A program made the position numbers and the translations under genes. From NCBI RefSeq assembly GCF_054482595.1, contig NZ_CM137008.1: a stretch of DNA of 64,000 nt, one strand, 5' to 3'. Every line of letters begins with the position of its first letter. The stretch's first letter is position 1. This document shows, one piece after another, positions 29,957 to 34,509 of this stretch. The notes below the pieces were generated by a model that saw only the letters and a program-made list of their open reading frames with translations, was not told where the DNA came from and did not search any database.

Positions 29957-31621
29957 TCAGGCTACCTTTTCGACAGAAACGTCGGCATCAGGGCGGGTCA
30001 GCGTCATCACCGACGCCAGTTTATTCAGGGTCTTGCCCAGGGTTTGCGGAATGGCGGTGGCGGCAACAAAGCGATCCGGGCGCATCACCACCAGCGAAGC
30101 ATTGTGTTGCGCGAACCAGCTACGCAGGCGACCTTGCGTATCCCCCACGCGTAGTACGCCGTCGTGGTTATCCTGTGCGGTATGAATTTGCACTTCCGGC
30201 ACCACCTGAATGAAGCGTGTGCCCAACGCGCGCCACTGCTGGATTTGCTCGTCGCTCATCCCCCACAGTGGATTGCATCCCCAGCCAATTACCGCGAAGT
30301 TCGCGCCGATCGCGTTATCGAGCAGCGTCACGTCGCCGTTTTCCAGCGTGACTTTCGGCTGAATAAACATCTTGCCGACCGGAGAGTGCTTCGCTTCGCC
30401 CTCACGCACCAGCGCACCGCCGTAATATTGCGGCATCGGCTTGAAGCGCATTTCGAGGAAGTAGCGTTTTACTGGCGGCAGATAATTCAGCAGCCAGGAA
30501 ACGCCGTCACGTAACGTACCCTGCCAGCGTTTCGGCGGAGCCAGCACGTTGCCCGCCGTCACGGACAGGTCAATCATCGCTTTGGCGTGATCGCGACGTT
30601 CTTGTTGATAGGTATCGAGCAGCGCATCGCGGGCTTTCCCCTGGATAACCAACGCCAGTTTCCATGCGAGGTTAAAGGCGTCGCGCATGCCACTGTTATA
30701 GCCCTGCCCCTGCCATACCGGCATGATGTGCGCGGCATCGCCCGCCAGCAGTACGCGATCAATACGGAAACGTTGCGCCAGTCGCGCGTTGTGGGTGTAG
30801 ACACGCTGGCGAATCAATTCAACATTGTCCGGATTAGGCAGCACTTTGCTTAACAGCTTGCGCATATTTTGCGGCTCACGCAGCTGTTCTTCGGTTTCTC
30901 CCGGCATCACCATAAATTCAAAGCGACGTACCGCATGAGGCAGCGCGGCAGAAACATACGGGCGCACCGGATCGCAACACAAATAGATATGCGGCGTACT
31001 TAACGGATCGTTGGCGATATCTACCACAATCCACTGATTTGGTGCAGTTTTACCTTCAAACGGCACATTCAGGGTGCGACGGACAAAACTTGCCCCACCA
31101 TCACAGGCCACCAGCCACTGGGCTTTGACTATTTCCCGCTGCCCTTCTGCCGTTTTCAGGTGCAAGGTCACTTCGTCATCTTGCTGACTGAAGGCCTCCA
31201 GCTCGCGGGAAAACAAGCAGCGCACATTCGGAAAACGCGACACCCCTTCCAGCATCACCGCATCGACCTGCGGCTGAATAAAGGCGTTACGGCGCGGCCA
31301 GCCAAATTCATCGGTCATTGGCTGAATATCAGCAAAACAGCGGCCCTTCGGGGTGAGAAAACGCATCGCGTGCCACGGTGTAGTGTGCGGCAGAACATTA
31401 TCGACCAGGCCAACCGACTGCATGGTGCGCAGCGCCTCGTCATCAATACCAATCGCACGCGGGTAGTCGATCAACTTATCGAGTTTCTCCACCACCAGCA
31501 CGTCAATGCCCATCTGGCCGAGATAGTTCGCCATCATCAGTCCGACCGGACCGGCACCAGCGATCGCCACCTGAACGCTATGGTTAACAGCAGGCTGGAT
31601 GTCAGGGTGTTGTATTGCCAT
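29957..31621 (-). CDS. mhpA: MhpA, 3-(3-hydroxyphenyl)propionate hydroxylase (FAD monooxygenase)
   Basis: 554-aa ORF with N-terminal GAGPVG FAD-binding motif. Confidence 0.95.
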
Positions 31622-31762
31622 TTCAGTACCTCACGACTCGGACAAAATGCCGTTGCGCGCACAGTACGGCGCAACTTATTTTGTTAAAAACATGTAAATG
31701 ATTTTTTATTGTGCGCTCAGTATAGGAAGGGTGTTTTCGGCTACAATCAAAACATGCCCGAA

Positions 31763-31779
31763 TGTGCACCAGGTGCACA
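31763..31779. promoter_or_regulatory. Candidate MhpR operator: palindrome TGTGCACC-A-GGTGCACA in the mhpA-mhpR divergent region
   Basis: Perfect 8-bp inverted repeat around a central A; recalled as resembling the published MhpR site. Confidence 0.5.
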
Positions 31780-31811
31780 ACGTTGTTTTAACTATAGAAA
31801 TGTCAATTAAT

Positions 31812-32645
31812 ATGCAGAACAATGAGCAGACGGAATACAAAACCGTGCGCGGCTTAACCCGCGGTCTAATGTTATTAAATATGTTAAATAAACTTGACGG
31901 CGGTGCCAGCGTCGGGCTGCTGGCGGAACTCAGCGGCCTGCATCGCACCACTGTGCGGCGACTGCTGGAGACGCTGCAGGAAGAGGGATATGTCCGGCGT
32001 AGTCCCTCCGATGATAGTTTTCGTCTGACCATCAAAGTGCGGCAATTAAGCGAAGGATTTCGTGACGAACAGTGGATTTCTGCACTGGCGGCCCCACTGC
32101 TGGGCGATCTGTTGCGCGAAGTGGTATGGCCGACAGATGTGTCCACGCTGGATGTTGATGCAATGGTGGTACGCGAAACCACCCACCGTTTCAGCCGCTT
32201 ATCCTTTCACCGGGCAATGGTCGGGCGACGTTTGCCGCTTCTGAAAACCGCCTCGGGCCTGACCTGGCTGGCCTTTTGCCCGGAACAAGAACGCAAGGAA
32301 TTAATCGAAATGTTAGCCTCCCGCCCCGGTGATGACTATCAACTGGCACGAGAACCGTTAAAGCTGCAAGCCATTCTGGCGCGCGCGCGCAAAGAGGGTT
32401 ACGGACAGAACTACCGCGGCTGGGATCAGGAGGAGAAGATCGCCTCTATCGCCGTACCGCTGCGCAGTGAACAACGGGTGATTGGCTGTTTGAATCTGGT
32501 GTATATGGCGAGCGCAATGACCATCGAACAGGCAGCGGAAAAGCATCTTCCGGCACTACAACGGGTAGCAAAACAGATCGAAGAAGGGGTTGAATCGCAG
32601 GCTATTCTGGTGGCCGGACGGCGAAGCGGCGTGCATTTACGCTAG
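31812..32645 (+). CDS. mhpR: MhpR, IclR-family activator of the mhp operon
   Basis: 277 aa from the internal start MQNNEQTEYKTVRGL. Confidence 0.92.
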   Translation: MQNNEQTEYKTVRGLTRGLMLLNMLNKLDGGASVGLLAELSGLHRTTVRRLLETLQEEGYVRRSPSDDSFRLTIKVRQLSEGFRDEQWISALAAPLLGDLLREVVWPTDVSTLDVDAMVVRETTHRFSRLSFHRAMVGRRLPLLKTASGLTWLAFCPEQERKELIEMLASRPGDDYQLAREPLKLQAILARARKEGYGQNYRGWDQEEKIASIAVPLRSEQRVIGCLNLVYMASAMTIEQAAEKHLPALQRVAKQIEEGVESQAILVAGRRSGVHLR

Positions 32646-32759
32646 TTACGCCAATGTGTAATTTGGCCCATTCTCATCGTTATTCGCCCATTTGCCCACA
32701 TGCACAGTACGGGCTGCACGCTACGCTAATGACATCAATACTGTGATGTGGAGCAAATC

Positions 32760-33536
32760 ATGAAAATTACGCAAATTCGTAATGCCACCCAAATTATCCA
32801 ATACGCTGGCAAAACATTTCTTATCGACCCGTTACTCGCGCCTAAAGGAAGTTATCCGGGTTTTGCCGGAACGGCACGCGCAGAAATCCGCAATCCAACG
32901 GTAGAATTACCGTGCGATTTAACAACGTTACTCAACGTTGACGCCCTAATCGTGACTCATTTACATGAAGATCACTGGGACGAAACAGCCTCCCGCGTCG
33001 TCCCTAAAGATAAACTGATTTATGTGCAAAATGAGCAAGATGCTGAATCACTGCATAAACAAGGATTTACACATCTTACCGTACTTACCGATGAGACTAA
33101 ATTTGGCGATATTACTCTGCATAAAACGACAGGGCAGCACGGCTCCGATCGCACCTATGCCGACCCGGCGATGGCGAAGCGTTTAGGCGCAGCCTGCGGC
33201 GTTGTTTTCCAGCACCCGACAGAGAAAACGCTCTATCTGGCTGGCGATACCCTCTGGCGTGACGACGTCGAGGCTACAATGCTAACTTTCCAACCAGAAG
33301 TGGTTGTGTTGAATGCCGGATTTGCGCATGTTCTGGGGCATGGCGCGATAATTATGGGAGCAGAAGATATTCTCAAAACACATTTTACCCTGCCAGAAGC
33401 GCAAATTGTCGCGACACATATGGAGGCCGTAAACCACTGTTTGCTGACGCGTGATGCGCTCAAGGAATACGCCAGAGATAATCAAATTATCGAATTTGTG
33501 AACGTACCAGAAGATGGTGAAACGTTGACATTCTAA
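32760..33536 (+). CDS. MBL-fold metallo-hydrolase (function unknown)
   Basis: 258 aa from MKITQIRNATQ with GGAG RBS; metal-binding motif THLHEDHWDE. Confidence 0.75.
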   Translation: MKITQIRNATQIIQYAGKTFLIDPLLAPKGSYPGFAGTARAEIRNPTVELPCDLTTLLNVDALIVTHLHEDHWDETASRVVPKDKLIYVQNEQDAESLHKQGFTHLTVLTDETKFGDITLHKTTGQHGSDRTYADPAMAKRLGAACGVVFQHPTEKTLYLAGDTLWRDDVEATMLTFQPEVVVLNAGFAHVLGHGAIIMGAEDILKTHFTLPEAQIVATHMEAVNHCLLTRDALKEYARDNQIIEFVNVPEDGETLTF

Positions 33537-33555
33537 TTCGGAGATAAAGAGTGTT

Positions 33556-34509
33556 ATGCGCCCGCTAACTGTTGCCATTATCGCCGTTGCCGGTTTTAGT
33601 CCTTTTCACCTTTCCGTACCGTTTATCGTATTTAGCGAAAAAATGGCGGAGAAAAAACACTTTCACGTAATTATCTGCGCTGAAAAGCCGGGAAACGTGG
33701 ACTCTGCCGATGGGTTTTCCGTAACCGCCACCCATGACTATACCGCAGTCATCCAGGCGGATATTGTGATAATTCCTTACTGGGGAACCATTACACAAAA
33801 ACCGCCACAAAAACTGCTGGAAGCCTTAACGACCGCACGGGATAACGGCGCACAGATTGTCGGGCTTTGCCTGGGCACGTTTGTGCTCGGCTATGCAGGT
33901 TTACTGAAAAATAAGCGTGCCGCCACGCACTGGGAGTTCGAGCGTGAATTTCAGGCACGTTTTCCACAAACACATCTGGATATTAACGCGTTGTACGTAG
34001 ACGATGACGGCATTATTACCTCTGCCGGTACTGCCGCGGCGCTGGATTGCTGTTTGTATATTGTTCGGCAACATTTTGGCAGCGACTATGCTAACCATAT
34101 TGCCCGACGGATGGTCGTACCGCCATATCGCACTGGCGGTCAGGCGCAGTTTATTGAGCAACCAGTGCCGAAAAATACCCATGATGAACGCATTAATCTC
34201 CTGCTGGATTACCTGCGGCAAAACATTGCGCAACAGCATGATCTCGACTCGCTGGCGCAGCGAGTAATGATGAGTCGCCGCACATTAACTCGCCATTTTA
34301 TGAAAGCGACCGGTTCGAGTATCGCCGAATGGCTTATTACTGAACGCTTACGCCGTAGCCAGGAACTGTTGGGATCCAGTCAATTGCCCGTTGAGCGGAT
34401 AGCAGCTGAGGTGGGTTTTCTCTCACCTGTGACCTGGCGTCAGCATTTTAAATCTCACTTCGGCGTCAGCCCCGCCGAATGGCGCAAAACCTTTCGCGGT
34501 ATGGCATGA
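33556..34509 (+). CDS. GlxA-family transcriptional regulator (DJ-1/PfpI-like N-terminal domain plus AraC-type HTH)
   Basis: 317-aa ORF; C-terminal AraC HTH; its last codons overlap the lacI promoter. Confidence 0.75.
   Translation: MRPLTVAIIAVAGFSPFHLSVPFIVFSEKMAEKKHFHVIICAEKPGNVDSADGFSVTATHDYTAVIQADIVIIPYWGTITQKPPQKLLEALTTARDNGAQIVGLCLGTFVLGYAGLLKNKRAATHWEFEREFQARFPQTHLDINALYVDDDGIITSAGTAAALDCCLYIVRQHFGSDYANHIARRMVVPPYRTGGQAQFIEQPVPKNTHDERINLLLDYLRQNIAQQHDLDSLAQRVMMSRRTLTRHFMKATGSSIAEWLITERLRRSQELLGSSQLPVERIAAEVGFLSPVTWRQHFKSHFGVSPAEWRKTFRGMA

Follow-up and report, generated by a model that had tools for sequence, protein, structure and literature searches.

The palindrome between mhpA and mhpR of Escherichia coli O157:H16 strain Santai, a probable operator of the IclR-family activator MhpR

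The window analysed here is a stretch of 64,000 nucleotides from E. coli O157:H16 strain Santai, in which, according to the RefSeq annotation, the divergent genes mhpA and mhpR flank a short interval that carries a perfect palindrome; the segment 31300 to 32100 (801 bp) matches the Santai strain at 100 % identity. Two questions are raised by this locus: which protein the palindrome serves, and whether it acts on the catabolic operon that begins with mhpA, on mhpR itself, or on both. Since mhpA starts at 31621 on the minus strand and mhpR at 31812 on the plus strand, positions 31622 to 31811 constitute the intergenic spacer, which is 190 bp long and of equal length in K-12. The initial annotation had described a perfect 17-bp palindrome, TGTGCACC-A-GGTGCACA, ending about 30 bp before the mhpR start. 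Both statements are borne out: the sequence and an inverted-repeat search place the palindrome at exactly 31763 to 31779, with arms of 8 nt (31763 to 31770 and 31772 to 31779) that are 100 % complementary and lie 1 nt apart, and the palindrome ends 32 nt ahead of the mhpR ATG. The best overall explanation is, with high probability, that it is the MhpR operator, from which MhpR activates the catabolic promoter, Pa. The features of the region are listed in Table 1.

Table 1 Features of the mhpA-mhpR region, in window positions; promoter elements and binding sites are candidates placed by sequence
Feature	Position	Strand	Details
mhpA	29957..31621	-	First gene of mhpABCDFE; its product is 3-(3-hydroxyphenyl)propionate hydroxylase; NF004827 equivalog, 1288 bits
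Best CRP-like 22-mer upstream of candidate Pr -10	31645..31666		K-12: AAATGTCGTTGCGCGCACAGTA; centre 31655.5, giving a Pr start at about 31696
ArcA-box-like direct repeat TGTTA-N6-TGTAA	31682..31697	+	Includes TGtTAAAAA (31682-31690), preferred candidate extended -10 of Pr
Putative Pa transcription start	31712..31713	-	6-7 nt beyond the -10 hexamer
Putative Pa -10 hexamer	31719..31724	-	TATACT, 16-17 bp from the -35-like element
Putative Pa -35 region	31741..31747	-	ATTGTAG, hexamer ATTGTA or TTGTAG
Probable MhpR operator	31763..31779		Perfect 17-bp palindrome TGTGCACC-A-GGTGCACA; core GTGCAC-N3-GTGCAC at 31764-31778
Conserved block TTGTTTTA	31783..31790		TTG[T/A]TTT[A], 4 nt past the operator on the mhpR side
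Candidate CRP site for Pa	31798..31819		AAATGTCAATTAATATGCAGAA; core TGTCA-N6-ATGCA at 31801-31816, centre 31808.5
mhpR	31812..32645	+	IclR-family activator, 277 aa

Identity of the palindrome with the published MhpR site

As a sequence feature the palindrome is unexceptional. Perfect inverted repeats with 8-nt arms and a spacer of 0 to 3 nt were found seven times in the 64-kb window, against 5.4 +/- 2.4 in Markov-1 simulations, and for a spacer of 1 nt the single case observed compares with 1.45 +/- 1.2 expected under the same model. The 15-bp core GTGCACCNGGTGCAC occurs once in the window, where matches with three mismatches are at chance level. A palindrome of this kind is thus no rarer than chance would give in 64 kb, and the case for a function rests on position and conservation.

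The spacer differs from that of K-12 MG1655 at three positions, one of which falls within the palindrome (31779, where the window has A and K-12 has C). In the direction of mhpA the palindrome of K-12 reads GGTGCACCTGGTGCACA, and GGTGCACCTGGTGCACA is also what Table 1 of PMC8222616 gives as the E. coli MhpR motif, with credit to Torres et al. 2003. The orthologous K-12 position is therefore fully identical to the published motif, the site in the window agrees with it at 16 of 17 bases, and the palindrome, which the initial annotation had named as the likely MhpR operator, is by this identity the known one. The annotation had also proposed a comparison with the published MhpR site; as listed in that secondary table (PMC8222616), the motif coincides with the palindrome and does not lie elsewhere in the spacer. 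Judged on the sequence match, then, the palindrome is the MhpR operator, already published, and the finding, though correct, is an ordinary one. The direct observations that carry it are the identity with the published motif, the conservation and the gene context.

The regulator fits the same picture. MhpR of the window has HTH_IclR and IclR_C domains, matches the NF007341 equivalog with 344.9 bits (cutoff 269) and is identical to the K-12 protein at 274 of 277 residues (99 %). Residues 1 to 159 are without change and the DNA-binding domain is identical, so the same DNA specificity is expected. In its locus, its 190-bp spacer, its regulator and 16 of its 17 bases the site resembles the K-12 Pa operator, as quoted from Torres, Porras, Garcia and Diaz 2003 (J Biol Chem 278:27575), and it departs from it in that C at 31779 leaves the K-12 palindrome an imperfect 7+1+7 where the window has a perfect 8+1+8. 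The operators of IclR-family regulators of aromatic catabolism (PcaU, PobR, HmgR and others) have been grouped as GTNCG-N5-6-CGNAC (PMC8222616). They are likewise short palindromes with half-sites less than one helical turn apart (here GTGCA-N5-TGCAC), in a divergent regulator/operon spacer and with an activator of the same family. A third GTGCAC-like repeat, as in PcaU/PobR, was not found in this strain, which has the unrelated TTG[T/A]TTT block instead; a third hexamer is present in a few E. coli strains through a 9-bp duplication.

Variation within E. coli and conservation across genera

Within E. coli, position 31779 is polymorphic, and the perfection of the palindrome in the window comes down to this single SNP relative to K-12: A gives the perfect palindrome, and C leaves the outer bases mismatched. 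Among 4897 matching E. coli records, 2083 carry the window's 61-nt haplotype exactly and 1337 that of K-12, the remainder being other flank variants; an exact match to the A allele is present in 43 % or more of complete E. coli genomes. Nine aligned E. coli sequences (the window, K-12 and seven other genomes) share an invariant 15-bp core and vary at 31758, 31779, 31782, 31792 and 31797, and one of the nine has an extra 9-bp copy. In strains TB4019 and WP3-W18-ESBL-08 a 9-bp duplication, GTGCACCAG, lies in the operator and produces three GTGCAC hexamers at 9-bp intervals. Partial coverage fitting this indel was seen in about 15 of the 4897 E. coli records.

A cross-genus set was assembled by scanning with MhpR, one genome per species, and comprised 80 loci with protein identities of 55 to 98 %. 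Allowing no more than one mismatch, GTGCAC-N3-GTGCAC stands at the corresponding position upstream of mhpR in 78 of the 80; the estimated chance expectation is about 0.004 per 1.5-kb locus. About 14 genera are represented among the motif-bearing loci: Escherichia, Citrobacter, Kluyvera, Shimwellia, Edaphovirga, Pluralibacter, Pseudomonas, Stutzerimonas, Azotobacter, Azomonas, Marinobacterium, Zobellella, Nitrincola, Oceanospirillum and Xanthobacter. In the 79 distinct sequences, anchored on the motif, the hexamers hold 1.8 to 2.0 bits per position, the central N3 less than 0.9 bit (most often TAA, next CAG), and the outer positions T(-8) and A(+8) about 0.75 bit each. The outer T occurs in 53 of 78 loci, the outer A in 57 and both in 40, and the outer C of K-12 in 6. 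On these frequencies the perfect 17-mer of the window is the family consensus and the C of K-12 the unusual state.

Of the 78 loci with the motif, 77 have an mhp catabolic gene as the divergent neighbour of mhpR (mhpA in 65, mhpD in 7, mhpB in 5). Both loci without the motif belong to Vibrio (V. cincinnatiensis and V. furnissii), in which no motif was found within about 3.8 kb; their MhpR orthologues are 69 to 74 % identical, and no divergent mhp catabolic gene is present. Where the catabolic gene is missing the motif is missing too, from which it follows that the motif goes with the catabolic promoter and not with mhpR, and the Vibrio loci can be read, on gene order, as a natural control that ties the operator to that promoter. 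Part of the conservation across genera may stem from horizontal transfer of the whole mhp module, which in P. putida W619 is flanked by IS elements. MhpR identities of 55 to 79 % outside Escherichia/Citrobacter, together with diverged flanks, argue for selection on the hexamers despite such transfer.

Conservation extends past the operator on the mhpR side. The TTGTTTTA block, at offsets +12 to +19, carries 1.3 to 1.8 bits (offsets +12 to +18 in 79 sequences, about 14 genera), and enterobacteria show no variation in it. The MhpR footprint may include this block; it may instead offer the polymerase alpha subunit an A/T-rich contact between MhpR and CRP, or belong to the mhpR leader.

The promoters on either side of the operator

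On the catabolic side two further elements keep fixed offsets from the operator centre in the cross-genus alignment. CTACAAT[G/C]AAAAC lies at -30 to -17, and its ACAA (offsets -28 to -25) reaches 1.25 to 2.0 bits across genera, within a -35-like block that is invariant in enterobacteria. AGTATAGGAA lies at -55 to -45 and reads TATACT on the minus strand; its AGTATA, the -10-like element of Pa, is conserved in all genera, with CATACT in the P. fluorescens group. Relative to the Pa start that these elements suggest, the operator centre (31771) falls at -58/-59, directly upstream of the -35-like element, a position that, as far as the sequence tells, suits an upstream activator contacting RNA polymerase. 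Torres in 2003 is said to have described the operator as 'centred at -58', which agrees with this geometry. Promoter prediction, also proposed in the initial annotation, gave no promoter in a strict sigma-70 scan of 31500 to 31950; the lack of a strict-threshold match at Pa is as expected of an activator-dependent promoter.

A larger imperfect inverted repeat, 31741-31754 / 31784-31797 (CTACAATCAAAACA / TGTTTTAACTATAG, 79 % complementary), is placed asymmetrically around the operator, and its left arm (31741-31754) includes the -35-like element of Pa. In K-12, Kim et al. 2012 recorded a weak start (9 reads) 18 nt upstream of the mhpA ATG, at about 31639 in the window. No other genome-wide start has been reported near mhpA. 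This one differs from the Pa start in Table 1 and was measured without inducer; it may mark a minor promoter or a processing site.

The candidate CRP site for Pa overlaps the mhpR start codon, and Escherichia, Citrobacter and two Kluyvera all keep its TGTCA half. If Pa starts at 31713 the site is at -95.5, the coordinate reportedly given for the CRP footprint at Pa. MhpR has been described as a 3HPP-dependent activator of Pa that is essential there for CRP binding (PMC8753852), and 3HPP, DHPP and phenylpropionate have been reported, in a passage of PMC11237407 that cites Manso 2009, to stimulate MhpR binding to the operator of the mhpABCDFE promoter. Put together, MhpR would bind both GTGCAC hexamers, whose centres are 9 bp apart, about 58 to 59 bp upstream of the start of Pa, which would drive mhpABCDFE on the minus strand, and just upstream of its weak -35. 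The inducers 3HPP, DHPP or phenylpropionate would strengthen this binding and so lead to Pa activation, and cAMP-CRP, bound further upstream near the mhpR start codon, would act jointly with MhpR. The A at 31779 would restore full symmetry relative to K-12 and match the cross-genus consensus. In this scheme we infer the Pa hexamers, the Pa start and the position of the CRP site; activation, the inducer effect and the dependence of CRP on MhpR come from the literature.

The operator-to-mhpR-start gap has a median of 32 nt (interquartile range 24 to 33) and is 12 to 38 nt in 73 of 78 loci, compared with 80 to 419 nt between the operator and the catabolic gene. No promoter was found in the 32 nt before the ATG, and with gaps as short as 12 nt the mhpR transcript is expected to start upstream of or within the operator. 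The initial annotation had stated that the palindrome lies in the mhpR leader. This is probably right, as no sigma-70-like promoter fits the 32-nt gap and the candidate sites for the mhpR promoter, Pr, are all upstream, though it holds as a deduction from promoter placement. CRP is said, in work by Manso from 2011, to occupy a class II position at -40.5 at Pr. The text of the Reg-Seq preprint puts the CRP site of mhpRp2 at -38 to -59, citing Manso 2011, and an ArcA-like signal at the -10 region of mhpRp2, shifted to about -20. The supplements of Reg-Seq, PredCRP, Kim 2012 and Mendoza-Vargas 2009 list no mhpR transcription start.

Three geometries for Pr were considered, all of which place the operator downstream of the Pr start. 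A CRP site at 31682-97 would imply a start at about 31730; one at 31710-25, with TACAAT at 31742-47 as the -10, would imply a start at about 31758; and one at 31645-66, with an extended -10 at 31682-90, would give a start at about 31696. The last is preferred, as the only one in which the ArcA-like repeat falls at the -10 region, in line with the Reg-Seq text. Under it the operator would occupy about +68 to +84 of a 116-nt leader, and the Pr and Pa transcripts would share about 18 nt at their 5' ends. The repeat itself is near-invariant in Escherichia, Citrobacter and Kluyvera, with GTTA and TGT invariant in enterobacteria; it lies in the mhpA leader and probably provides the mhpR promoter with its -10 region, in agreement with the ArcA signal of Reg-Seq at mhpRp2. 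The CRP-like 22-mer at 31645-31666 is not conserved in Citrobacter, and at 31650 the window has C where K-12 has T, which weakens the CRP-like half-site from TGTCG to TGCCG. An in-frame ATG at 31698 adjoins the preferred Pr start and lengthens the mhpR reading frame to 315 aa with no stop, and the whole Pa control region, the operator included, lies inside this 315-aa frame.

Other readings of the palindrome and its significance

A chance palindrome with no function would be compatible with the frequency of 8-nt-arm repeats in the window, which is that of random sequence (7 against 5.4 +/- 2.4). The K-12 orthologue of this site is, however, identical to the published operator motif, and in 78 of 80 loci, drawn from about 14 genera, the hexamers hardly vary, in contrast to the centre and flanks; on these alignments chance looks already refuted by the conservation data, and it is given virtually no weight. 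A role in RNA, in which the hairpin followed by UUGUUUU in the mhpR leader would form an intrinsic terminator or attenuator limiting mhpR, was suggested by a scan in which 31763-31779 plus ACGTTGTTTT came up as terminator-like (7 pairs around a loop of 3, then a T-run), and the T-rich block does keep a fixed offset across genera. The hairpin is nevertheless weak, at -7.4 to -10.1 kcal/mol (-7.4 in K-12, -9.1 in the window), with z-scores of -0.6 to -1.0 in three enterobacterial sequences, no better than shuffles; two Pseudomonas sequences are stronger, at -2.0 and -3.1. The U-tract is interrupted and starts 4 to 5 nt after the stem, the arms pair elsewhere in the fold of the 135-nt leader (z = -0.98), any DNA palindrome yields such a hairpin, and mhpR is expressed constitutively (PMC11237407). 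A terminator or attenuator was rejected for its weak energetics and displaced U-tract and is very improbable. Equally hard to credit is that the palindrome mainly serves NtrC or CRP instead of MhpR. In E. coli K-12 the mhpR/mhpA spacer holds the strongest genomic-SELEX peak of NtrC (88 %; PMC8743547), so that NtrC selects this spacer in vitro, and both half-sites of the NtrC box TGCACCAnnnTGGTGCA, TGCACCA and GGTGCA, occur in the operator; here, though, TGCACC and GGTGCA are 1 nt apart, 4 bp closer than in the box with its 5 nt, a sigma-54 promoter context is lacking, and the documented cognate regulator is another one. The NtrC box (TGCACCA-N3-TGGTGCA) was rejected on this spacing, and half-sites at non-canonical distance probably explain the SELEX peak in vitro. 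The ends of the operator, TGTG...CACA, resemble a CRP site, but TGTGC-N7-GCACA stands against TGTGA-N6-TCACA, and a CRP site was rejected, the spacing being one base too long and the inner bases different. Against either protein, the motif travels with mhpR and the mhp genes through genera of very different nitrogen and carbon control, and the published assignment, as tabulated in PMC8222616, is MhpR.

With the palindrome read as the MhpR operator, the more substantial alternative is a dual role, in which MhpR bound to the palindrome on the transcribed 5' leader of mhpR would also repress mhpR, by polymerase block or promoter occlusion. The near-constant gap of 12 to 38 nt in 73 of 78 loci, against 80 to 419 nt on the catabolic side, with the operator ending just 32 nt before the mhpR ATG, speaks for it, as does the lack of a promoter-like site between operator and ATG, from which mhpR transcripts probably cross the operator. 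Apparently K-12 alone was tested, with its imperfect allele, and the perfect allele may bind more tightly. On the other side, a PmhpR::lux fusion in MG1655, which has the K-12 allele, was constitutive with or without PP or 3HPP, and its authors note agreement with Torres 2003; the same paper states that these inducers raise operator binding (PMC11237407). In the two Vibrio mhpR loci that lack a divergent mhp gene, about 3.8 kb contained no motif, and the constant short gap is equally explained if the upstream edge of the Pa control region abuts mhpR. The dual role is unlikely, and the suggestion in the initial annotation that the site may also autoregulate mhpR found no support in the lux and Vibrio data. 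A broader version, with similarly slender prospects, is that the fixed operator position and the TTG[T/A]TTT block reflect a second role, likewise conserved, in mhpR expression, be it as a roadblock, by promoter interference or through an additional contact with MhpR or the polymerase alpha subunit, which may have been missed since only K-12 was studied. Under that reading the less symmetric C allele of K-12 could be derived and the perfect palindrome ancestral-looking, and the perfect allele, which this strain shares with 43 % or more of E. coli genomes, would bind more tightly and either lead to autoregulation that can be measured or shift the induction threshold.

The neighbourhood of the locus differs from K-12 in one respect. 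Between mhpR and lacI, at 32748 to 34509, are two genes that are absent there in K-12, where lacI directly follows mhpR; one codes for an MBL-fold hydrolase (Lactamase_B_2), the other for a regulator of the GlxA family (DJ-1/PfpI plus AraC HTH).

For the reading of the palindrome as the MhpR operator at Pa, the site and its regulator were characterised in 2003, and the finding is therefore of little importance beyond correct annotation. It does place the textbook 'imperfect palindrome' of K-12 as a minority state beside TGTGCAC-N3-GTGCACA, the cross-genus consensus. An EHEC mhpR mutant was outcompeted in mice. Natural operator variants, namely A or C at the outer position and the 9-bp duplication with its third hexamer, could tune the induction of this gut-colonisation-linked pathway, and they could also serve MhpR-based biosensors.
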